Part shown: positions 52,794 to 62,360 of the stretch, one piece after another
Layout of the letters: every line of letters starts with the position of its first letter
How positions within the stretch are numbered: position 1 is the stretch's first letter
NCBI GenBank assembly: GCA_963799775.1
Contig: CAWCYD010000003.1
Location: forward strand, 704,001-768,000
Length of the DNA stretch: 64,000 nucleotides
From: an uncultured archaeon
GTDB lineage: Archaea > Thermoproteota > Nitrososphaeria > Nitrososphaerales > Gagatemarchaeaceae
Direction of reading: 5' to 3'
Translations under genes and position numbers: made by a program
The notes under the pieces: model-generated
Databases searched by the model: none
What the model saw: only the letters and a program-made list of their open reading frames with translations
What the model was told of the DNA's origin: nothing

Positions 52794-53732
52794 TTAGGGG
52801 CGTTTGCTGCCTTTTGTCATCGCATAGGTCACGACCAAGGGCAGGGCTATCGTCGCGTCGGCGATGAGCGTCGATTTCTTCGCCTTTGGCCTGACCTTCC
52901 CCCACGAGATGGCCTCCTTGACCTGGGCGCCGCTCAGGCTCCCATCGTACTCGGTGGCCGTCGTGATGTAGCACGCGTAGTCCAGTCCTCCCTTGAACTG
53001 GGACCACCAGATCACGTGATGCTTGGAGATTCCTCCGCCGACCACAAGCGCGCCGCTCTTCTTGGCGTCGAAGACGATGTCCGCGAGCCTCTTCTCGTCC
53101 CCTATCACGTCCACCCTAAAGTCGCTCCTCCTGTTAGCGAAAAGCCAGAGCTGCGAGCCCACAGCGCCGTCCATCGGCCCTGGCAAGAAGATGGGCACGT
53201 TCTTCTTCTTCGCCCAGTGAAGGATCGAGTTCTCGTCCGCCAGCTCAGCGAGAGAAGAGCAGAGCTGCTCGGTGGTCATGGTCTTGGCTCCCTCCGCGTA
53301 TCTGCGGTCTAGCCACGGCTGGATCCGCTTCTCGAGCGCGGGGCCGTAGGTCTCCAACGGGACGAGTATGTTGCCCAGCCTGTGGTAGCCCTGCCTCTTG
53401 AGCTTCACGTCGTCTAGGTCGAAGCTGCCGTGGAAGTACGACCCCCAGCTCCGGGCGAGGTCGTGGTCTAGCGTCCCTGAGGCCGTGACTATGACGTCCA
53501 CCATCCCTTCGCGTATCATGTCCACTATCACTCCCCTGGTGCCCGTCGCGACCAGGGCTGCGGGGAAGGAGAGGAACTTGGTGCAGGCGGGGTCGGCGAC
53601 CATGTCGCTCAACACGCCCGCAGCCTCTGCGAGGTGCCTTCCCATGAACCCGCCGGCGGCGCGCATCTGGTCGACCATGGCCACGACGTCGGTCGACGGT
53701 CGGAGATGGACGTCCCTGACCTTCTCTAGCAA
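52794..53732 (-). CDS. dys: Deoxyhypusine synthase
   Basis: RLGNILVP, DGAVGSQ, GGGISKHH, DGSLSGA..KEAISWGK, DATIALP. Confidence 0.95.
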   Translation of the reverse strand: MLEKVRDVHLRPSTDVVAMVDQMRAAGGFMGRHLAEAAGVLSDMVADPACTKFLSFPAALVATGTRGVIVDMIREGMVDVIVTASGTLDHDLARSWGSYFHGSFDLDDVKLKRQGYHRLGNILVPLETYGPALEKRIQPWLDRRYAEGAKTMTTEQLCSSLAELADENSILHWAKKKNVPIFLPGPMDGAVGSQLWLFANRRSDFRVDVIGDEKRLADIVFDAKKSGALVVGGGISKHHVIWWSQFKGGLDYACYITTATEYDGSLSGAQVKEAISWGKVRPKAKKSTLIADATIALPLVVTYAMTKGSKRP

Positions 53733-53899: not shown

Positions 53900-54925
53900 A
53901 TGCTTACTTCGGCATATTCTGTTGACGACGACGCCAGGTGCACGCACTGCTCTGGGAGGATGGTCGACATCGACGAGGAGATGGTCTGCTCCTCGTGCGG
54001 GGGCGTGAGGCCAAAGGAGACCGAGACAGGCTCGGCGGACGCTGTGCGAAGGGCGCACGCGGTAGACTACACGAACCACTCGCTAGGTAGCTTTCTCGGT
54101 CCGATCGACTACGACCGCGACGATGCGCCCGCGAGAGGGCTCTCTGGCTCCTCCTCCACGTTCAGATACCTGAAGACAATCTCTGACTACTCGCAGGTGG
54201 ACGAGGTCGGCGTCTATCCGTGCGCGAAGCTGATCGAGAGGATCTGCGAGAAGCTCTCGCTCCCGGTAGGGGTGATGGGGCAGTCGATATCAGTGGCCAA
54301 GGGCCTCCTGATGATCAGGAAGCAGAGGGTAGGCTACACGATAGCGGCGATCTCCGCCTTCTCGATAATAAGCGCGTGCAGGATCTGCGGCGTCTCGACG
54401 GTAGGGGCGAGGGAGGTCGTCGCAGCCCACAAGGCGCTGGGGCACAATGTCAGGCCATCGATGCTGATCAAGATGGGGTTCGACTCGCCGGTCAAAGCGA
54501 GCGCCATGAGGGCGGAGGAGTACCTGGGCAGGGTCGCGGCCCGCTTCTCCGAGATCCTGCCGCGGCTGCACGCCCCTCCTGGCTACCAATACAGGCTCCT
54601 CCACCTTGCGAGGAGGGCGCTAGCGATGCTGGATTCCTCGGTGAGGGGCGGCCACAACCCGCGCGCGCTCGCAGCGACGAGCTTCTACGCGGCGGAGGTG
54701 GCGATCGCAGAGAGCGAGTCGAGGAAGAGGTTGTTCACCCAGAGGGACATCGCGACATGCATCGAGGCTGCCGAGTACACGGTGAGAGAGCAGTTCTGCG
54801 AGCTCTTCAGACCGCGTTGGGATGAAATCTATGGTGAGCTCAGGCCGATGCTGCAGGCCCAGAGCCAACCACAGTCCAGTCAAAGCTTCCAGTCGCTCCA
54901 GGCACTCCAAGCTCGACCAGCTTGA
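53900..54925 (+). CDS. Divergent transcription initiation factor IIB (TFB) paralogue
   Basis: CTHC..VCSSCG Zn ribbon, IERICEKLSLP cyclin fold, GHNPRALAATSFY, TQRDIA....EYTVR BRE-binding HTH. Confidence 0.85.
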   Translation: MLTSAYSVDDDARCTHCSGRMVDIDEEMVCSSCGGVRPKETETGSADAVRRAHAVDYTNHSLGSFLGPIDYDRDDAPARGLSGSSSTFRYLKTISDYSQVDEVGVYPCAKLIERICEKLSLPVGVMGQSISVAKGLLMIRKQRVGYTIAAISAFSIISACRICGVSTVGAREVVAAHKALGHNVRPSMLIKMGFDSPVKASAMRAEEYLGRVAARFSEILPRLHAPPGYQYRLLHLARRALAMLDSSVRGGHNPRALAATSFYAAEVAIAESESRKRLFTQRDIATCIEAAEYTVREQFCELFRPRWDEIYGELRPMLQAQSQPQSSQSFQSLQALQARPA

Positions 54926-55625
54926 ACCAGTAGCTCGGGGCGCAGACGGCGCCCCAGACCAGGCCTGCGGTGAGAACGAACCCCAGTGCCGACGCCTCAG
55001 TCATCAATCCGGGCAACGTCGCCCCGAAGGCGGCCTGGACCAACGTTGAGTTGCAAGGAGACCTCGAGAGCGCAGAGCCGAGAGCGTCCTGCGCTGACGC
55101 ACAGAGAAGAGCCGCGTCACCGAGGCGCACAGGGACGTTCAAGACGTGGGTCTCATGTCTCTCGAGCAGGACAGACCCTCCGCCCCCGACCTCCCTGATG
55201 GAGAAGGCGACGCGCATGTCGAGCGCTCCCTCCGCGCCTCCCGAGAACGGGGACACCACCGTCAAGTTATCGGCCGCTGGCGAGGACGGCCCGGCGTCTC
55301 CGACGCCTGTGGCATTGGCGACGTACGATGTCCCGGAGTCGTCTCCTGAGGATGAAGACGAGGCCGAGATGGATCCGACGTAGCCCTCGAACTCCCCGCA
55401 GGTGGCCGGGTTCGTCGAGAGGAAGGACTGGGCTTGAGCGAGTACTCCCATCGAGAGGCTTCCCATGAGCGCTTGTTCGAGCACCAGTTCCCTCGTCTCG
55501 ACGCGAGAGAGCTGCGACCCCGCGGCAAGGTTGTCCTGGGCAGAGACGATGGTGGCATCTGCGACGACGAGGAGGCTGAGCAAGACGACCGAGGCCAGCG
55601 TGGCGGCTACTGCCCTTCTAGCCAA
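54840..55625 (-). CDS. Minor pilin/TadG-like secreted protein with class III-like signal
   Basis: TTG at 55625 gives MARRA|VAATLASVVLLSLLVVA, then a Ser/Gly-rich extracellular domain with Cys residues. Confidence 0.5.
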   Translation of the reverse strand: MARRAVAATLASVVLLSLLVVADATIVSAQDNLAAGSQLSRVETRELVLEQALMGSLSMGVLAQAQSFLSTNPATCGEFEGYVGSISASSSSSGDDSGTSYVANATGVGDAGPSSPAADNLTVVSPFSGGAEGALDMRVAFSIREVGGGGSVLLERHETHVLNVPVRLGDAALLCASAQDALGSALSRSPCNSTLVQAAFGATLPGLMTEASALGFVLTAGLVWGAVCAPSYWFKLVELGVPGATGSFDWTVVGSGPAASA

Positions 55626-55972
55626 GCTTGTATCACGACCACGCGGCCGGGCAGGTCCAGCGTCAGGGACGAATGGGGGGCGAACGGAGACGGGGAGGGC
55701 GACCCCTCGCATCCCGCCCCCTGCAACGACACGTCGAAGACAAACGTCGAGTTGCTGGCCTGCAGGCCGCTCGCGCAGAGCGAGGACTCGGTGGAGCTTG
55801 TGAGGAACGGGAGACCGACTTGGCCCAGATAGGCGAGGATCGCCGAGTCCACCCTGGAGTCTGCCGCCGCCTCGACTGCTCCCTCTCTCGCGGCGATGGG
55901 GTTCATCAGGACTATGAGGGTGATGCAGAGCACCGCGTAGCCCGTCCCGACCGCTATGTCGATGAGCTGCAC
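55607..55972 (-). CDS. Minor pilin-like protein
   Basis: MQLIDIAVGTGYAVLCITLIVL N-terminal helix, GAGGTG RBS, small Cys-containing domain. Confidence 0.5.
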   Translation of the reverse strand: MQLIDIAVGTGYAVLCITLIVLMNPIAAREGAVEAAADSRVDSAILAYLGQVGLPFLTSSTESSLCASGLQASNSTFVFDVSLQGAGCEGSPSPSPFAPHSSLTLDLPGRVVVIQAWLEGQ

Positions 55973-55995
55973 CTTAAGCCACCCACCTCATCCAA

Positions 55996-56100
55996 TCAGC
56001 CTGCGAGGGCGAGGTGCGAGATCACGACTGACAGAGCGACGACTGTCAGCAGCGAGAGCATGACCAGAGCGATGCACACTTCCAGGTAGTCCTCAATCAT
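55996..56100 (-). CDS. 34-aa single-helix pilin-like peptide
   Basis: Hand translation MIEDYLEVCIALVMLSLLTVVALSVVISHLALAG. Its start overlaps the upstream gene's end. Confidence 0.45.
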   Translation of the reverse strand: MIEDYLEVCIALVMLSLLTVVALSVVISHLALAG

Positions 56101-56479
56101 CGCGCGCCGGTGCGACTAGCACCTTCCCTCCTTCCAGCGTGAAGTTGTACAGCGGTCCGGGATAGAGCACGCATCGCTCAAGCTCCCATTTCACCTGAGT
56201 CTCAGCTCGGGAGCCACCGAACGAAGCCGTGACTGTTCTCCCAGAGAGCGAGACGGAGAGAGCCACCGCGGGGTAGCTCTCCAGTCTGGCCAGCACGCTG
56301 GTCCCTGCGGTCATCGAGTCGATCGTGCTGCTCAGGCTGAGCGCGACGACCTCTGCAGACCTCTCCTGGGAGGTCGCGTACACGTGATAGACAGGAGGCG
56401 CGAGCAGCAGGAAGAGGCTCATGATGGCGGCGAAGTAGACTGCGTAGGAGACCTGCGAAGAGAGTCCGACGGTCGGCAT
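56093..56479 (-). CDS. Minor pilin-like protein
   Basis: N-terminal hydrophobic helix, amphipathic helix (AEVVALSLSSTIDSM), beta-rich tail; operon position. Confidence 0.5.
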   Translation of the reverse strand: MPTVGLSSQVSYAVYFAAIMSLFLLLAPPVYHVYATSQERSAEVVALSLSSTIDSMTAGTSVLARLESYPAVALSVSLSGRTVTASFGGSRAETQVKWELERCVLYPGPLYNFTLEGGKVLVAPARDD

Positions 56480-56480
56480 C

Positions 56481-56846
56481 CTAGCACTCCACCGTCAGCT
56501 GCAGCGAGGCGGAAGTGGGGAGGAAGTCTAGCGTGCAAGCACCGTCGAGTCCACCGTAGTCGAAGGAGCAAGGAAAGCCCAGCTCGTAGACCCGAGACGC
56601 GCCTCCCAAAGTTACTGAGAGGCTCCCGTCTGAGCACGAGACGGAGGTGTCTTGCAACGGGAGCACCAGTGCCACCTCCCTTCTCTCGATGGAAGAGACC
56701 CTCGCCGCACCAGCGATCTGGTCCGACTTTGAGGACGCCGCCAACTGGTTCAGCCCCGGCAACGCCTCGCTCACGAGCATCACGCTCATCCCGGCCAGGC
56801 CCGCGGAGATGCCGAGGACCAACACGTATTCTATCAGCTCGACCAA
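56481..56846 (-). CDS. Minor pilin/TadE-like protein
   Basis: MVELIEYVLVLGISAGLAG (pilin-like EY motif), four Cys in the C-terminal domain. Confidence 0.55.
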   Translation of the reverse strand: MVELIEYVLVLGISAGLAGMSVMLVSEALPGLNQLAASSKSDQIAGAARVSSIERREVALVLPLQDTSVSCSDGSLSVTLGGASRVYELGFPCSFDYGGLDGACTLDFLPTSASLQLTVEC

Positions 56847-56929
56847 TGGAGATGCACACCAGAGAGCTCGGCCGGAGACTTAAGCGCCCACGCGTTGGCG
56901 CTTTATTATCAGACCGCACTAGGTAGGGG

Positions 56930-58418
56930 TTGATAGGCCGTCTGGAAAGATGTCTGCTGCGTCTCGCGCGCAGAAGAAAGGGACATGCGCCTGCCCGAGG
57001 TCCGCTCCTCGTCGAACTTCTCGAGTCGACCGACGCGGAGCTGGTAGAGTCGTATCCAAACGGGCTCTTCAGGTCCGAGATCAGGAAGGGAGAGGGAGGG
57101 ACGCTGTACGACCTCGTGCCTTGTTTGGGCGCGGAGAACCTCTCCCTCCTAAGGACGGCTGTGGCGAGGATAAGCGAGACGCTCTCTCCTGAGCAGGTCA
57201 AGCCGTTGGACTTCACGCGCCTTGTCGAGGTGCTCGGACAGATGGCAGCTCGGGAGCTCTCGCGGATACGAGACCTCTCACTCGTCAGGGAGCTCTCTCG
57301 GTTGGCTGCGTTCGAGGCAGTGGGACTGACCACCTTGTACGCCCTGTCGAGAGACAGGAACGTCCAGGAGTTCTACCTTGACTCCCCGACCACCCCGGTC
57401 TATCTCGACCACGCGAAGTTCGGGAGGTGCGAGACGAGGATATTCTTCACAGAGAGGGAGAGGAAGGCCATCGAGACCCACATGGACACCTTCAAGGGGT
57501 ACACGCTCGACTACGCCAACCCCTCGCTGAAGAACGAGTTCGAGGTCTTCGGGACAAGGCTCCGCATCTCGTTGGACCTGGAACCGCTCGCTGTGAGCGG
57601 ATTCTCCCTCGACGTACGCAAGCTGACGTCCAACGTGATGACGATAAGGGACCTGATCGGCATCGACGTCCTCTCTGTCGAAGCGGCGGCCTTCCTGCTT
57701 GCCGCCTTGGAGGCGGGGGTCAACGTGACGATCGTCGGGGAGACGGGGACCGGGAAGACGACGCTGTTGAACGCCCTCGACGAGTCGCTCGACCCGAGGC
57801 TTCGGAGGATATACGTCGAGGACGCGGTCGAGACGAATGGACCTGCTGGAGCGGGGGTATCATCAGATGAAGCTACGAGTCGACCCGTTCGAGAGGGGCG
57901 ACGAGGCCCAGAGGACCAAGTCGGCCGAGATAACGAAGATCCTGCACAGATCACCGGACCTTCTGGTGCTCGGTGAGATTCAGTCCGAGGAGCACAGCAG
58001 GGCGTTCTTCCAGGCTCTCGCGGCAGGCGTCCGGGGACTGCAGACGTTCCATTCCTCCTCGCCGGAGCAGGCCATCAGAAGATGGCTGGAGCTGCACGGC
58101 GTCTCGAAGGCCAACCTCGCCGACCTCGGGGTCATAGTCCAGATGCAGCGACCCCAAAGGCTCTCCTCTCGGAGGTGCGTCCAGAGCATCTCGACGTTGG
58201 GGCGAACCCCTTTCAGCGACCCGGGCGAGGCGAGGGCAGAGCCGGCCCTCAACAGGTTGTTCGTGAGGGCGACAGGATGTCCCCTTGTGAGGACGGCATC
58301 TTGGGAGCAGATGGACCTTGCGACGGTCGCCATCCCACTAGAAGAGTTCTTGCGGGCGGTCGAGACGAAGATCGAGAGCATCGGTGAGATGAGGGCGGAG
58401 AGGGCGGCGCTCGATTGA
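56930..58418 (+). CDS. Type IV pilus/Tad secretion ATPase (VirB11/CpaF family; frameshift near 57837)
   Basis: Walker A GETGTGKTT, Asp box VEDAVE, Walker B LLVLGEI, His box TFHS. Confidence 0.88.
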
Positions 58419-59125
58419 GAGTGGAGTCGTGGGAGAGGCTCGGCCTCGACAGCGGCAGGTTCCTCTTCCTCTCCCTGGTCGTCGCGGCGGCGCTCCTCGG
58501 CGTGGTGCTCATCGTTGGAGAGGAGCTGCATCTTGGTGCGGTCTCGTTCGTCCTTGCCACGGTGGCGGCGGGCTGCTCCTGCTATCTCGTCTCTTCGTCG
58601 CCGAGGAGGAAGATGAGGCTGGCCGCGTTCCGGCAGGCTTCGGAGTCGCCCTCGCTGGCTGCCTCTTCGAACATCTATCTGAGGTCGACTGGCTCCAGGA
58701 GCAAGACGCTCCTGAACCTTGCCGCCGAAGAGTCGATGCTAGGCACCTTCCTCGCAGACGTGAGAAGGATGACCCTGTTAGGCTACGACGCGACATCAGC
58801 CATCGAGGCGTCACGGCCCGAGGACCATGTCTTCTCAGAGTCGGCGAGGACCGTCCTCAACGCGGTTGTCAGACTGGACCCTGCCAGGGTGGACGAGGGG
58901 GGCGAGGAGCTTGATGGGATCCTGAGTTCGGGCGGCCTGGACCAGGAGACCAAGCTGCCGCTCTTGGTCGCGGTCTCATTCTTCCTCCCCATCATGCTCA
59001 TGCTCTTCGCCGCGACGACCAAGCAGACCGGCCCGGTGGCGATGGTCGCCCTCCTCTTGCTCGAGGTCATCATCCTTGACATGACCCTCGCCCTCTCCAG
59101 CGAGACCGTCGGATGGGGGGCGTAG
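58415..59125 (+). CDS. TadB/TadC-like membrane platform protein
   Basis: Two N-terminal TMs, soluble helical region, FFLPIMLML TM pair; overlaps the ATPase stop. Confidence 0.65.
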   Translation: MRVESWERLGLDSGRFLFLSLVVAAALLGVVLIVGEELHLGAVSFVLATVAAGCSCYLVSSSPRRKMRLAAFRQASESPSLAASSNIYLRSTGSRSKTLLNLAAEESMLGTFLADVRRMTLLGYDATSAIEASRPEDHVFSESARTVLNAVVRLDPARVDEGGEELDGILSSGGLDQETKLPLLVAVSFFLPIMLMLFAATTKQTGPVAMVALLLLEVIILDMTLALSSETVGWGA

Positions 59126-59134
59126 AGACGCGTC

Positions 59135-59791
59135 TTGACTGACAAGAAGAGCGCACGCGGGACGGGCGCGGAGCTGGAGCTCGTCAGGCGACTGCGGGCG
59201 GTTCTCAAGCGGACTTCGGGGGGCATGGGGGTCGCGGCCGCTTTCGTCGGCGTCTTCTCGGGCTCACGGAACACCGGAGAACGCGAGGCGGTAAGGAGGA
59301 TCCTTCTCGGGACCCCCGTGGAGGCAGCCTCTACATCTCTCACTAGGCAGAGCGGCACTTCGGGAGAGCTCCTGGGCTTCATCGCGACCATGTCAAGGTT
59401 CAGCTCGACGGACGCCGGCAAGGGAGCCGAGAAGCTTGCAACGATGTTCGACAGATGGACCCTCATGAAGGAGAAGCAAGCTGCGGAAGAGAAGGTCATG
59501 GCCTTCCGCGGGCTTGTCATCTCCGTGGTCGCGGGAGTGGTCGTTGGGATGCTCGGAAGCCTCGCTCCAGTGCTCTCGACATTCCAGATCTCACTCGGGG
59601 CGGCGACCACCCCGCAGCCCGTCGGGTTCTCTCCCTACGAGGGGGCGATCTTCCTGATCCCCAGCGCGGTCTGCCTCGGGTGTTTCCTCTCGAAGCGGCG
59701 GCCCTACGTGAACGTCCTTCTCTCTCTCGCCGCGTTCGCGGGCGTGGTCTACCTGATGGGGCCGATGACCTCTTTCACGCTCGGTCCTTGA
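59135..59791 (+). CDS. Second TadB/TadC-like membrane platform protein
   Basis: RRILLGTPVEAA T2SSF-like helix, three C-terminal TMs. Confidence 0.65.
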   Translation: MTDKKSARGTGAELELVRRLRAVLKRTSGGMGVAAAFVGVFSGSRNTGEREAVRRILLGTPVEAASTSLTRQSGTSGELLGFIATMSRFSSTDAGKGAEKLATMFDRWTLMKEKQAAEEKVMAFRGLVISVVAGVVVGMLGSLAPVLSTFQISLGAATTPQPVGFSPYEGAIFLIPSAVCLGCFLSKRRPYVNVLLSLAAFAGVVYLMGPMTSFTLGP

Positions 59792-59807
59792 GCCAGACTG
59801 ATGGGAG

Positions 59808-59816
59808 GTTAAATAT
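59808..59816 (+). promoter_or_regulatory. TATA box upstream of pilin gene
   Basis: GTTAAATAT about 25 nt before ATG 59837, as seen at other gene starts in this window. Confidence 0.55.
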
Positions 59817-59836
59817 CGTCACGGACTAGGAGAGCA

Positions 59837-60055
59837 ATGATAATCGAAAGAATTTTCCCGACCCTCGGGAAGAAGAGAAGAGCCGCGCAGCTCATCGAAG
59901 AGGCGCTGCTCCTCTCGGTCGCGCTCGTGGCGCTGTCTCTCCTTGTCGGCGGGGTCGACTCGATCCTGAAGCAAGCGGGGAACATGACGTCCAACATCTG
60001 GAACTCGATATCTTCGAGCCTCAGCGACGTGTTCGGTTCAGCGTTCCACTGGTGA
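59837..60055 (+). CDS. Flp-like major pilin with class III signal peptide
   Basis: GKKRRA|AQLIE (Glu at +5), then a hydrophobic helix and a short amphipathic tail; 72 aa. Confidence 0.75.
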   Translation: MIIERIFPTLGKKRRAAQLIEEALLLSVALVALSLLVGGVDSILKQAGNMTSNIWNSISSSLSDVFGSAFHW

Positions 60056-61854
60056 GCTGGCCTCACTTGGGGACCGAGGAGCCGACTGTCTCTGGCGCGG
60101 GGCCTCGAGCGGGAGGGCTCTTCACCCGGTTCAAATGGAGGCTCTCGGGCGGCGTTCCGATAAGGGTCGAGTCCGTCTCCGTGGTCGAGGGACGATATCT
60201 CGCGATCACGAGATCCAGCAACATCAGGCTCTTCTCACTCCTCCGTGTGAACCTCTCCGACACGAGCGAGGAACCGAAGCTCGACTACTCGGCGGCGGTG
60301 AGGATAACCCTTCAGCACCAGAGGATGAAAGGGCTCCTGGACGGGCTCCACAGGGCCAGGATACCGTTCCTGTACACGATGATGGTGAAGCCCTCGAACA
60401 GCGCGGATGAGGAGGAGGACCAGGTGTTCGAGTTCGACCTCGTGGTGGGCACGTGGGTGGACGCGCGCGGAAAGGAGCTCCAAGAGGCAAGGAGCGAGTG
60501 CGAGCAGAACGCATCCACGCTCGCCGCGACCCTGGCAGTCGGCCTCCCGAACTCTACCGTCAGGCGCCTGACGAGGAACGATCTGGTGAGCTTCGCCGAG
60601 GCGCTCCTGCTCCCCGCGGCCCCGAAGCTCCGGCAGGTGGCGGACTCCTCGACGCTCAGCGCGCTCGAGCCGTTCGACTCTCACGGCCCCAGCGTCGACT
60701 CGGCGAGCACGGCGCCAGACTTCTACGTCCCCAACTCGAAGGAGTCGGGGACCGAGAGAGGAGACGGGATAGTCCTCGGAAGGGTGAAGACACGTTCGGG
60801 CAGCACCCATGAGTTCCGGCTGCAGCTAGACGACCTGAGGAGGCACGTCACCCTCATGGGCATGACGGGCTCGGGCAAGTCGACCACCGCCGCCGTCATC
60901 GTGCGCCAGGTCGCTGCGATGGGCCTCCCTGTGATGATCCTCGACTGGCACAACGAGCACGCCGACCTCGTGAAGTCGGTGGGAGGACAGGTGCTCTCCC
61001 CGGGGAAGGACGATTTTGCGATCAATCCCATGGACATGGGGCCGGCGACGGAGCCGTCGGAGCACGTCGAGATGGTGACCGACATCTTCTCGGACACGTA
61101 CCATTTCACCCACCCCCAGGCCTACATGTTCCGGAACGCGCTCCAGAGGTGCCTGGGAGAGGCCGCGGACAGGGAGGTCCCGACCCTGGCCTCGCTCGTG
61201 GGCACGATCGAGAGCTATCCGCTCCGGTCCGCCTACGACAACGAGACCAAGGTCGCGCTCCTCAGGCGGCTCGTCCCCCTGACGCAGGGTCACGTCGGTC
61301 GCGCGTTCAACTCCCCTTCGAGCCACACGGTGGACGAGCTGCTCGACAAGGTCCTCTGCGTCGAGCTGGGGAACATCAGGGAGACCCTCTCGAGGGGTAT
61401 CTTCGCCGACGTCCTGATGAAGCTCGTCTATGAGATGAGGGTCGCCAGGAAGGTAAGGATGGAGCACGTCATGATGATCGAGGAGGCGCGCAACATCGCG
61501 CCGGCCCGCAGGGTGGAAGACCCTCCCAGCGTCGGCGAGAGGATGATATCGGAGCTGAGAAAGTTCGGGGAGTCGATGCTCTTCGTCGCGCAGTTCCCCA
61601 CCCAGGTCGCGGCGGAGGTGGTCAAGAACTCTGGGGTGCGCATTATCCACAGGGTCGCCTGGGCGGAGGACCTCAGGCTGGTCCGCGACTCGCTGAACCT
61701 GACGAACGAGCAGGTCGCCTACGTCTCGGGGCTCGGTGTGGGCGAGGCGGTCGTGAGCCTGACCAGGATACAAAAGCCGCTGCTCGTTCAGGTCGAGGCA
61801 GGAGGCTCGTTGGTCCAGGCGAGGAGGGACCTCAGTTTGGTCGGAGAACCATAG
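60052..61854 (+). CDS. VirB4/HerA-FtsK superfamily ATPase (DUF87-like)
   Basis: RHVTLMGMTGSGKST, ILDWHNE, INP, MMIEEAR, ELRKFG..FVAQ, GVGEAVV; ~240-aa N-terminal extension. Confidence 0.87.
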   Translation: MSWPHLGTEEPTVSGAGPRAGGLFTRFKWRLSGGVPIRVESVSVVEGRYLAITRSSNIRLFSLLRVNLSDTSEEPKLDYSAAVRITLQHQRMKGLLDGLHRARIPFLYTMMVKPSNSADEEEDQVFEFDLVVGTWVDARGKELQEARSECEQNASTLAATLAVGLPNSTVRRLTRNDLVSFAEALLLPAAPKLRQVADSSTLSALEPFDSHGPSVDSASTAPDFYVPNSKESGTERGDGIVLGRVKTRSGSTHEFRLQLDDLRRHVTLMGMTGSGKSTTAAVIVRQVAAMGLPVMILDWHNEHADLVKSVGGQVLSPGKDDFAINPMDMGPATEPSEHVEMVTDIFSDTYHFTHPQAYMFRNALQRCLGEAADREVPTLASLVGTIESYPLRSAYDNETKVALLRRLVPLTQGHVGRAFNSPSSHTVDELLDKVLCVELGNIRETLSRGIFADVLMKLVYEMRVARKVRMEHVMMIEEARNIAPARRVEDPPSVGERMISELRKFGESMLFVAQFPTQVAAEVVKNSGVRIIHRVAWAEDLRLVRDSLNLTNEQVAYVSGLGVGEAVVSLTRIQKPLLVQVEAGGSLVQARRDLSLVGEP

Positions 61855-62360
61855 TCCAGGGTCCAATCGATCCAGGCCGCTCGCGGCGTCTTCCGCCCGT
61901 CACTCCGCCCCGCGTCAGATGCGATCGCCTTTGCGACGCTCCTCGGCGTGGAAGAGGTGGTGTCGTACTCCCTCACGATGTCAGGGCCGAACCGCTTCAC
62001 GCACTCCGAAAGGACAACGCCGATCAGCTCGGCCTCGACGTTCTCCCGCACCTTGGACCTCGGGTAGCCTCTCGCCTCCAGCCTCCCGCGGAGGACCATC
62101 GGGTCGCACCTCAGCACGGCGACGAAGGAGGCCTCGCGTCTGGTGAGCACGTGTGGGAGCAGATGCCCGAAGAGCACCGCCCTCCCGGGAAACGCAGCGA
62201 GGAGCTTCCTCCGCAGCGCTCCCGTGTCCACCTCGTCGCCGCGTCGTGGCGCGAGCGAGTTCAGGGAAAGTTGCGGGAGCCCCATGATCGACGCGACGAG
62301 CGGTGCGACGGTCTTCTTTCCTGTCCCAGGCGTCCCGCTGACCCCTACTATGCCACGCAC
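61788..62360 (-). CDS. Archaeal adenylate kinase (AK6/Fap7 type)
   Basis: GTPGTGKK, FGHL, LRCDP..L..RL..RGY...KV.EN.EAE. Confidence 0.85.
   Translation of the reverse strand: MRGIVGVSGTPGTGKKTVAPLVASIMGLPQLSLNSLAPRRGDEVDTGALRRKLLAAFPGRAVLFGHLLPHVLTRREASFVAVLRCDPMVLRGRLEARGYPRSKVRENVEAELIGVVLSECVKRFGPDIVREYDTTSSTPRSVAKAIASDAGRSDGRKTPRAAWIDWTLDYGSPTKLRSLLAWTNEPPAST

Follow-up and report, generated by a model that had tools for sequence, protein, structure and literature searches.

Results

Genes of the locus

The subject of this report is a cluster of pilus-type genes in a 64,000-nucleotide stretch of DNA from an uncultured archaeon (GenBank assembly GCA_963799775.1, contig CAWCYD010000003.1, positions 704,001 to 768,000 of the forward strand). 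The whole of this stretch is referred to as the window, and coordinates are those of the window unless stated otherwise. In the cluster an Epd/Tad-like filament is joined to a CedD/VirB4-like motor; the finding is the joining, since both kinds of machine were already known. An earlier note, made from the sequence of the window without database searches, had described the locus as a possible single-locus pilus with a DNA pump. The linkage of pilus genes to a CedD/VirB4-like ATPase was found as described, whereas DNA transfer is still deduced, and is weighed in the Discussion.

Between the gene for deoxyhypusine synthase and an adenylate-kinase-like gene there are 11 open reading frames (ORFs), the pilus ATPase being counted as two frames. 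A TFB-like gene, the pilus ATPase of the T2SSE type (two frames), two membrane proteins, a gene of 72 amino acids (aa) and a large ATPase are encoded on the plus strand, and four small ORFs, located between the TFB gene and the pilus ATPase, on the minus strand. The proteins of the locus and its flanks, 13 altogether, were scanned with the Pfam and NCBIfam models; these are the family scans referred to below.

The pilus ATPase (56930-58418, plus strand) is of the FlaI/TadA (T2SSE) type. It is split into two frames (56930-57976 and 57837-58418), both of which matched PF00437 (34.9 and 37.3 bits, cut-off 24.9), and the best NCBIfam models were TIGR03819 of the TadA family (2.8e-18) and FlaI (6.2e-16). 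The gene starts with TTG and is transcribed divergently from the small minus-strand genes. The earlier note had seen a VirB11/CpaF-type ATPase in this divergent arrangement; the family was named correctly, but the gene is split by a one-base insertion, an extra T at about position 57837 between the codons for ...VET and KDLL.... The extra base, which lies outside homopolymers and happens to create the ATG of the second frame, is absent in all 11 aligned relatives, and relatives encode the pilus ATPase as a single frame of 471-516 aa. A search for sequencing runs that contain the locus gave one DNA run, with 0.24 of the sampled words, and no RNA run. Short contigs derived from reads matched parts of the locus at full identity, without a reported indel, and none among the best 8 of 34 spanned position 57837.

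The pilus ATPase is unusually divergent. Three intact orthologues scored 80-92 bits on the FlaI and TadA-family models. By comparison, 12 ordinary pilus ATPases, taken from the genome of the window and from four crenarchaeal-type genomes, reached 227-690 bits, with FlaI or BasE as the best model. Because the ATPases of the cluster score so much lower than the ordinary crenarchaeal ones, no kinship with Ups is seen, and the link of the pilus part to Ups pili, as drawn in the earlier note, was dropped. The genome of the window has three other T2SSE loci, and at C3:638352-640784, outside the window, one open frame of 1477 aa has T2SSE matches at two places.

Two membrane proteins are encoded between the pilus ATPase and the 72-aa gene. 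The first, of 236 aa (58415-59125, plus strand), has four hydrophobic windows and is a candidate T2SSF platform of the TadB/EpdJ kind; in the protein Atlas search T2SSF sets accounted for 28 of its 30 named matches, with scores of 0.94, 0.91 and 0.90. The second, of 218 aa (59135-59791, plus strand), is a TadC/EpdK-like platform candidate by the same search, where a T2SSF set made up 24 of the 30 named matches and the T2SSF clusters were archaeal. In hhalign the families of the two proteins aligned weakly, over the cytoplasmic helical part (probability 44%, E 2.3e-4). PF00482 (T2SSF) gave no match at E<=1 in 10 platform orthologues, the window copies had no Pfam match, and profiles of the platform families matched PDB sequences at chance level only. 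Of the claim that there are two TadB/C-like proteins the membrane nature and the T2SSF neighbours in the Atlas stand, but the Pfam T2SSF model is silent; judged by sequence, both are probably single-domain T2SSF platforms.

The 72-aa gene (59837-60055, plus strand) encodes a Flp-like prepilin with a leader ending in RR[GA], followed by [AVI]Q[LI][VIL]EE. A basic leader ending with G or A, the motif x-Q-[LI]-x-E-E and a hydrophobic helix were present in 22 of 22 sequences across the class. Residues Q18, E21, E22 and L25 were invariant in these sequences, and the invariant Glu is at +5. The window gene had no match in the family scans; PF04964 (Flp_Fap) matched one of four copies scanned (the window copy and three orthologues) at E 0.0034, with 17.6 bits against a cut-off of 32.2. 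With 24 small or membrane proteins from four lineages no Pfam match was above threshold. The prepilin is likely to be the major pilin. Its stop codon overlaps the GTG at 60052, giving GTGA, so that both the Flp-like pilin with its class III leader and its overlap with the start of the large ATPase are as the earlier note had read them. The same note had advised a search for a prepilin peptidase: the family scans detected neither such a peptidase nor a second ATPase of the TadZ/FlaH type within the locus, and the genome contains one PF01478 candidate, which is borderline (25.7 bits, cut-off 26.5) and lies about 85 kb past the end of the window.

The minus-strand genes were said to be five small pilin-like genes; four were found, and the same four slots were found again in relatives. 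Families and genera of relatives carry anonymous labels (f1, g1 and so on), f1 being the window's own family. Gene A (56481-56846, 121 aa) has the N-terminus xVELIEYVLV. Gene B (56093-56479, 128 aa), which is conserved in f1, and gene C (55607-55972, 121 aa), whose orthologues start with M-[KRQ]-x-[IL]-D, have an N-terminal hydrophobic helix. Gene D (54840-55625) is about 261 aa long from a TTG, its frame being open up to 55712; the protein has the N-terminus LARRAVAATLASVVLL and is hydrophobic from residue 1, and orthologues start with M-x-R-R-A/G-V-A-A. In the hydropathy scan each of the four had a hydrophobic window at or near the N-terminus. None of them matched a Pfam or NCBIfam family.

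The first plus-strand gene (53900-54925) encodes a TFB paralogue that is divergent and full-length, with a Zn ribbon and two cyclin repeats. In the family scans TFIIB appeared weakly, and the window protein alone scored 26.8 bits on NF001658; since this is far under the cut-off for orthologues (384 bits), the protein is considered a divergent paralogue. A profile of 17 orthologues was compared with PDB sequences and matched TFIIB (E 7.2e-17), the archaeal TFB core (1d3u_B/1ais_B, E 3.4e-12, profile positions 103-305, which cover both cyclin repeats) and the Zn ribbon (1pft, E 2.9e-4). The four Zn-ribbon cysteines are invariant or almost so among the orthologues. As previously noted from the sequence, the gene converges on the operon of small minus-strand genes, and this position is kept in relatives.

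The large ATPase

The last gene of the series (60052-61854, plus strand) encodes a CedD-like ATPase with a VirB4-like N-domain. It is 600 aa long from the GTG; gene callers of public collections start it at 60067, which gives 595 aa. DUF87 (Pfam 'Helicase HerA, central domain') was found with E 4.7e-16. The best curated family was CedD (NF053655; 182.6 bits, E 1.2e-53), with residues 239-582 aligned to model positions 198-526 of 527. Much lower scores were obtained with the repair-HerA models NF040937 and NF040819 (65.4 and 55.2 bits, cut-offs 800 and 970) and with the VirB4 model TIGR00929 (31.7 bits, cut-off 643).

A profile made from ten family members was run against 1.84 billion representatives and gave 396 proteins at E<=1e-30. 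When 76 of the top 150 were subjected to a family scan, 72 had CedD as their highest-ranking family; among the 76 there were three bona fide CedD proteins, which scored 610-746 bits. With a hidden Markov model of the family's motor domain, CedD scored 186-208 bits, relatives of about 1000 aa 150-195 bits, shorter CedD-like proteins 108-172 bits, repair HerA 90-92 bits and CedB 28-30 bits. Among 29 sequences there was no variation in the Walker A residues or in the EE of the Walker B motif. Paralogues of about 1000 aa (frames of 825-1059 aa) occur in relatives G014, G006, G015 and G021, which belong to the same genus; they are 28-32% identical over the motor domain.

An AlphaFold2 model of the whole protein (predicted local distance difference test, pLDDT, 81) matched structures of HerA and VirB4, the top Foldseek match being Sulfolobus HerA (4d2i, E 1.3e-20). 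The N-domain (residues 1-232, pLDDT 75.9) was searched separately, as the earlier note had suggested, and the N-domain of TrwK/VirB4 ranked first in two independent searches. In VIA-align the match was 7o42_A (Z 9.2, root-mean-square deviation 4.4, 165 residues aligned; next match Z 6.2), and in Foldseek 8rtb_A (E 3.1e-4). The model predicts a VirB4-like fold for the N-domain, which fits the published resemblance of the N-domains of CedB and CedD to parts of the VirB4 N-domain (PMC11868833).

A careful tree was calculated by maximum likelihood from 56 motor domains. The 27 pilus-linked proteins and five relatives of about 1000 aa formed one clade (support 94/99), CedD and two groups of shorter relatives another (94/73), and repair HerA was separate (100/99). 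The about 1000-aa representatives fell inside or beside the pilus-linked clade. In a quick tree the pilus-linked proteins had grouped with CedD (SH-aLRT 89), a sister relation that the careful tree did not recover. A further DUF87 protein of the genome, a 934-aa frame at C3:2038181 outside the window, had a very long branch in the ATPase tree.

Because its scores are below the cut-offs and the clades are separate, the large ATPase is a CedD-like, VirB4-like ATPase of a clade of its own, outside the CedD equivalog, and is not a repair HerA. Thus, of the assignment to the VirB4/HerA type, DUF87 and the VirB4-like N-domain support the superfamily, whereas the nearest curated family is CedD and not repair HerA. 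A grouping with stand-alone repair HerA, which in combination with a lack of synteny the earlier note had named as fatal to its proposal, was not observed: the HerA clade is apart and the scores were 55-65 bits compared with 183 for CedD. The kinship with Ced that it had mentioned is upheld in so far as CedD is the nearest curated family, but the score is far under the cut-off and the careful tree gives no support for a sister relation of the two.

Promoter elements

The pilin gene has its own TATA box, as had been noticed: TTAAATAT at 59810-59817 (plus strand), preceded by TGGGAGG, the whole element (59802-59817) ending 20 nt upstream of the pilin ATG. The pattern TNGGNNNTTAAATA, which describes the element, occurred once in the 64-kb window, compared with a mean of 0.20 in shuffled sequences, where at least one match was seen in 19 of 100 shuffles. 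It was present once each in 42 of the 172 fetched loci, and in 40 of these 42 it stood at the place expected for the pilin promoter (the exceptions being L081 and L144); the placements were checked by coordinates, not one by one in sequence. The 40 promoter-bearing loci come from 24 different genomes, with G+C contents from about 0.38 to 0.64. As the TTAAATA box is about 21-35 nt ahead of the start codon, the pilin transcript is suggested to be leaderless or to have a short leader.

The TFB-recognition element (BRE) is usually purine-rich. The motif upstream of the pilin TATA box appears to differ from this consensus.

A second A/T-rich box, TTTATTAT, was read directly from the sequence at 56903-56910, in the divergent intergenic region. 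It is 20 nt ahead of the TTG start of the pilus ATPase and is preceded by GTTGGCGC. This box resembles the pilin promoter and does not match TNGGNNNTTAAATA; the region is common to the pilus ATPase and the divergent operon of small genes.

Conservation of the cluster

Strong matches to the large ATPase (E<=1e-100) were found in 22 of 24 other genomes of f1, and 16 genomes representing other families within the order gave no match better than 2e-10. The f1 loci were examined in 13 stretches from 12 genomes. In 10 of the 12 the whole series was present: H+-PPase, deoxyhypusine synthase, TFB, four small genes, pilus ATPase, two putative platforms, pilin, CedD-like ATPase and kinase. One of the remaining genomes is cut by a contig end, and in the other (G009) the pilus genes are missing. 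In G009 (L020:9785-11600) the first 66 TFB codons abut residue 54 of the CedD-like ATPase; unless the contig is misassembled, about 6 kb have been cleanly deleted.

Of 401 genomes sampled from the class, 41 had a strong match to the ATPase. By family, these were 9 of 11 genomes in f1 and 5 of 9, 14 of 14, 1 of 1, 7 of 10, 2 of 2 and 1 of 1 in others. The two large families of the window's order that, judged by the size and number of their genomes, look like ammonia oxidisers gave 0 of 223 and 1 of 78, the latter being one weak match. Twenty loci were taken from three more genera of f1 and from six other families of the class; in 17 of them the pilus ATPase is located immediately upstream of the CedD-like gene. 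Of the other three, two are short contigs, and one (L074) keeps only pilin, ATPase and kinase. The pilin gene was directly 5' of the ATPase gene in all 25 mapped loci (24 and L121).

In the phylum sample (301 genomes) matches to the CedD model at E<=1e-30 were obtained in 94, and only 10 of them, all from one family, were over the cut-off; in the control the CedD model signalled only in Sulfolobus acidocaldarius. Sixteen loci from other classes were inspected. Six contain the genes for TFB, pilus ATPase, pilin, the CedD-like ATPase and the kinase, arranged as in the window, one is a short contig with pilin, ATPase and kinase, and L114 has the ATPase alone. Three loci (L108, L111 and L120) encode a CedD-like protein with two N-terminal membrane helices next to the same convergent kinase and have no pilus genes. 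The other 5 of the 16, including two true cedD loci (L118 and L119), have neither pilus genes nor the kinase. The kinase shared by L108, L111 and L120 hints at positional orthology between the CedD-like genes and the pilus-linked clade.

These data show an old, vertically inherited cluster which has repeatedly lost parts, and not an island. The ATPase stays beside the pilus genes in relatives from the family, the class and other classes, which answers the synteny question raised by the earlier note; its wording that the system belongs to a thaumarchaeal lineage proved too narrow, as the cluster is also present in other classes of the phylum.

Discussion

Comparison with known systems

The filament is best explained as Epd/Tad-like, with a FlaI/TadA-type ATPase, two probable platforms, a Flp-like major pilin and four minor-pilin-like proteins. 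Two single-T2SSF platform genes together with a very short pilin define the Epd-like and Tad systems according to PMC6668835. The likeness to the Epd-like pili of methanogens and to the bacterial Tad (type IVc) pili extends from the ATPase and the two small platform candidates to the short pilin with Flp leader and Glu at +5 and to the additional pilin-like genes. In contrast to these systems, the locus has no TadZ/FlaH-type ATPase or prepilin peptidase, its putative platforms are too divergent for the Pfam T2SSF model, and it includes as fixed members a TFB paralogue and a CedD-like ATPase.

The large ATPase is best explained as a hexameric-type ATPase from the superfamily of FtsK and HerA which is joined to the pilus and to the TFB by gene order and inheritance. 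It resembles CedD (Saci_0667 / SiRe_1715) and TedD in superfamily, in size and in the VirB4 kind of N-domain. Two species of Sulfolobales are reported to be unable to import DNA without CedD (PMC11868833, PMC11823120); the described range of CedD comprises Sulfolobales, Desulfurococcales and Acidilobales, with TedD in Thermoproteales (PMC11823120). CedD-like genes of two crenarchaeal-type families have the same convergent kinase neighbour as the window ATPase (L108, L111 and L120). Unlike in the true cedD loci L118 and L119, however, the window ATPase is preceded by genes for pilus assembly and for a Flp-like pilin. In the models, the N-domain and the motor domain also fold like those of VirB4/TrwK from bacterial type IV secretion, whereas the window protein is about 200 residues shorter, has a low score on the VirB4 model (see above), and no VirB3, VirB6 or VirB8 partners were detected.

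Two further archaeal systems are related in content. TFIIB homologues have already been noted beside archaeal pilus loci (PMC4858521), and in the T4P-like subclade 4D of Pyrobaculum and Thermoproteus (arCOG05557-05559; PMC4858521) a TFIIB homologue likewise lies near a small membrane protein and an ATPase that is of the pilus type but divergent. By its published description, with which alone the comparison was made, subclade 4D lacks pilins and its TFIIB, about 160 aa long, has a single cyclin repeat, whereas our locus encodes pilins, a CedD-like ATPase and a TFB in which there are two cyclin repeats and a Zn ribbon. The conjugation modules of thaumarchaeal integrated conjugative elements (Krupovic et al. 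2019; PMC6563490) share FlaI, pilins, a VirB4-type ATPase, a TFIIB homologue and probably TadC with the cluster, which differs from them in being chromosomal, fixed in position and syntenic over large distances.

A pilus cluster with a CedD-like ATPase was not found described in the literature searched, to which bioRxiv supplements did not belong. The main text of the 2016 census by Makarova, Koonin and Albers (PMC4858521) ties no HerA-type ATPase to pilus loci, HerA appearing in it as a superfamily name and in a reference. In Table S4 of the same paper arCOG00280 is present in 20 loci, mostly as short haloarchaeal proteins, and in addition in one Cenarchaeum locus. The rows for Cenarchaeum symbiosum (1145-1151), an ammonia-oxidising thaumarchaeon, list FlaI, a small two-helix membrane protein and a HerA-type gene of 634 aa, beside an actin-like gene.

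A candidate DNA translocation machine

We estimate the chance that the locus encodes a pilus-coupled DNA translocation machine with a dedicated TFB at about 50 per cent. Such a machine is the simplest reading because of the role of CedD in import, the kinship of the N-domain with VirB4, the coupling of the ATPase to a pilin and the fixed pilus kit. In the proposed mechanism the locus would be activated by the TFB paralogue through its promoters, among them the conserved TNGG-N3-TTAAATA element ahead of the pilin gene; the pilus would contact DNA or a partner cell; and the CedD-like ATPase, co-translated with the pilin, would drive DNA over the membrane, CedD being required for DNA import in Sulfolobales. 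Control of the locus by the TFB paralogue is plausible on sequence grounds, because the linkage of its gene and the promoter element upstream of the pilin are both conserved. While gene content, kinship, fold, linkage and the conserved promoter element are matters of observation, we infer regulation by the TFB, the DNA substrate and the direction of transport, and the locus is put forward as a candidate DNA-exchange apparatus of uncultured archaea.

Several observations weigh against a DNA machine. The large ATPase scored 183 bits on the CedD model, far below the cut-off of 600 bits, and only its motor domain aligned. In the careful tree the backbone that joins the pilus-linked clade, CedD, repair HerA and CedB has a support of 15/28, and a role of the pilus-linked clade in handling DNA is deduced from kinship. 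No N-terminal membrane helix was predicted by hydropathy in the first 270 residues of the window ATPase, unlike in Sulfolobus CedD; some remoter members of the clade do carry an N-terminal hydrophobic window, and some CedD proteins are described as having no N-terminal membrane anchor (PMC11823120). Neither nuclease nor relaxase nor DNA-binding genes were recognised by the family scans in the locus and its flanks. CedB (NF041017) gave no match at E<=0.001 in the genome of the window, which is 81.67% complete, so that this partner of the Ced system was not found. A search for a channel of the VirB6/CedA type had been proposed in the earlier note; PF04610 (TrbL/VirB6) had no match in the same genome, and CedA was not searched for. 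Finally, the pilus ATPase is frameshifted in this assembly.

Alternative explanations

The gene pair of pilin and large ATPase fits a pilin motor equally well. According to this alternative, which we regard as possible though clearly below an even chance, the CedD-like ATPase is a second pilus motor that works on the Flp-like pilin, in the way VirB4 handles VirB2, either dislocating it or powering assembly or retraction of the filament. The machine would then serve adhesion, aggregation or protein secretion and not DNA transfer. VirB4, whose N-domain it resembles, energises pilus biogenesis in type IV secretion (cited in PMC11823120), the overlap of the two genes and their constant adjacency are what would be expected of an enzyme and its substrate or anchor, and the scans of the 13 proteins recognised no linked gene for DNA processing. 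Archaea are described as devoid of retraction ATPases of the PilT family (PMC4858521), so a second motor would fill a gap. On the other hand, the motor domain is nearer to CedD than to the VirB4 models (183 compared with 32 bits), and the crenarchaeal relatives L108, L111 and L120 keep the ATPase beside the kinase without any pilus gene, indicating that the ATPase can work without this pilus.

A different question is whether the system is decaying in this organism. The frameshift may have inactivated this copy, provided that the extra base was not introduced by the assembly. If the frameshift is real, the locus could be heading for loss, as in one relative and in the ammonia-oxidiser-like families, and the extra base, located outside homopolymers and absent in all 11 relatives, the deletion in G009 and the counts of 0 of 223 and 1 of 78 in the two families all point in that direction. 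However, the other genes of the locus are intact. Elsewhere in the same genome, outside the window (C3:1418947-1421154), a glyceraldehyde-dehydrogenase-like gene is broken into five frames, which suggests indel errors in the assembly or else several pseudogenes in the organism, and frameshifted housekeeping genes are also present in other few-contig assemblies of the genus (L024 and L025). Together the five-frame gene and the frameshifts in L024 and L025 point to assembly indels, and decay of the system appears rather doubtful to us.

It is very improbable that the locus is the remnant of an integrated conjugative element. The gene repertoire of the thaumarchaeal elements, to which VirB4/VirD4-type ATPases belong, overlaps with it in kind, and according to PMC6563490 every one of them has a TFIIB homologue. 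But the same housekeeping flanks (deoxyhypusine synthase, H+-PPase and the adenylate-kinase-like gene, in agreement with the earlier note) recur across the family, in other families of the class and in other classes. The G+C content is flat (0.61-0.66 across 53-62 kb), and integrase, relaxase, ParB, VirB6, VirD4 and nuclease families are missing among the 13 scanned proteins; both the lack of relaxase and integrase and the even composition had been noted before. No TrbL was detected in the genome, whose best match to the VirB4 model is the large ATPase of the locus itself (E 1.6e-8), and the only length differences seen in relatives were the deletion in G009 and an unrelated insert of 19 kb in G017. 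The previous description of the locus as domesticated implies a mobile origin, of which we found no evidence.

That the large ATPase is an ordinary repair HerA which merely happens to be beside a pilus operon can practically be dismissed: the top Foldseek match and the name of the Pfam domain would agree with it, but the scores on the repair models are a small fraction of the cut-offs, the HerA clade (100/99) is apart from the pilus-linked one (94/99), the N-domain matched VirB4 and not HerA, the linkage to the pilin gene is conserved, and NurA, Mre11 and Rad50 families were not found among the 13 scanned proteins.

Implications

Sulfolobales and their near kin are the only archaea in which DNA exchange is understood, and there the pilus, the importer and the TFB3 regulator have separate loci. 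One conserved cluster would be a testable candidate for DNA transfer in lineages which dominate soils and sediments and for which there is no genetics, and it would offer a natural pair of TFB and promoter for studying how archaea use TFB paralogues. It is also a possible evolutionary bridge from type IV filaments to the conjugation motors of the VirB4 type. If, on the other hand, the pilin is what the ATPase works on, this would represent a novel type of pilus motor among organisms without PilT.

Tentatively, a bolder view may be taken, although we think it more likely to be wrong than right: the cluster could specify a widespread, vertically inherited organelle of DNA uptake or exchange, in which a Flp-type pilus is physically coupled to a VirB4/CedD-like translocase and served by its own TFB and a private promoter, and crenarchaeal CedD could be the motor that survived after the pilus genes had been lost or replaced. 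The kinase neighbour shared in some lineages would then be a trace of the pilus-linked past of CedD, and natural DNA exchange would also take place in Thaumarchaeota that do not oxidise ammonia and in further classes of the phylum.

Flanking genes and other observations

On one side the cluster is bordered by the gene for deoxyhypusine synthase (52794-53732, minus strand); in the gene order of relatives H+-PPase, recognised in the family scan, is a flanking gene on the same side. On the other side is the adenylate-kinase-like gene of the PRK03839 type (61788-62360, minus strand; NF003012, E 6.8e-23). It is convergent with the large ATPase and adjoins it in all three fetched sets of relatives; this gene is probably outside the machine proper. 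AmoA had no match in the genome of the window, in a search made without a positive control genome.

In the relative G017 (L019:11892-19901 and L029:1-10385) about 19 kb are inserted directly after the complete CedD-like gene. The insert is followed by a second copy of the last 307 codons of this gene (about 91% identical) and then by the usual kinase, which looks like an element integrated into the 3' end of the CedD-like gene. Fifteen ORFs of the insert were scanned, and just two of them could be assigned, one to an AbiEii-like nucleotidyltransferase and one to a PQQ-repeat protein.

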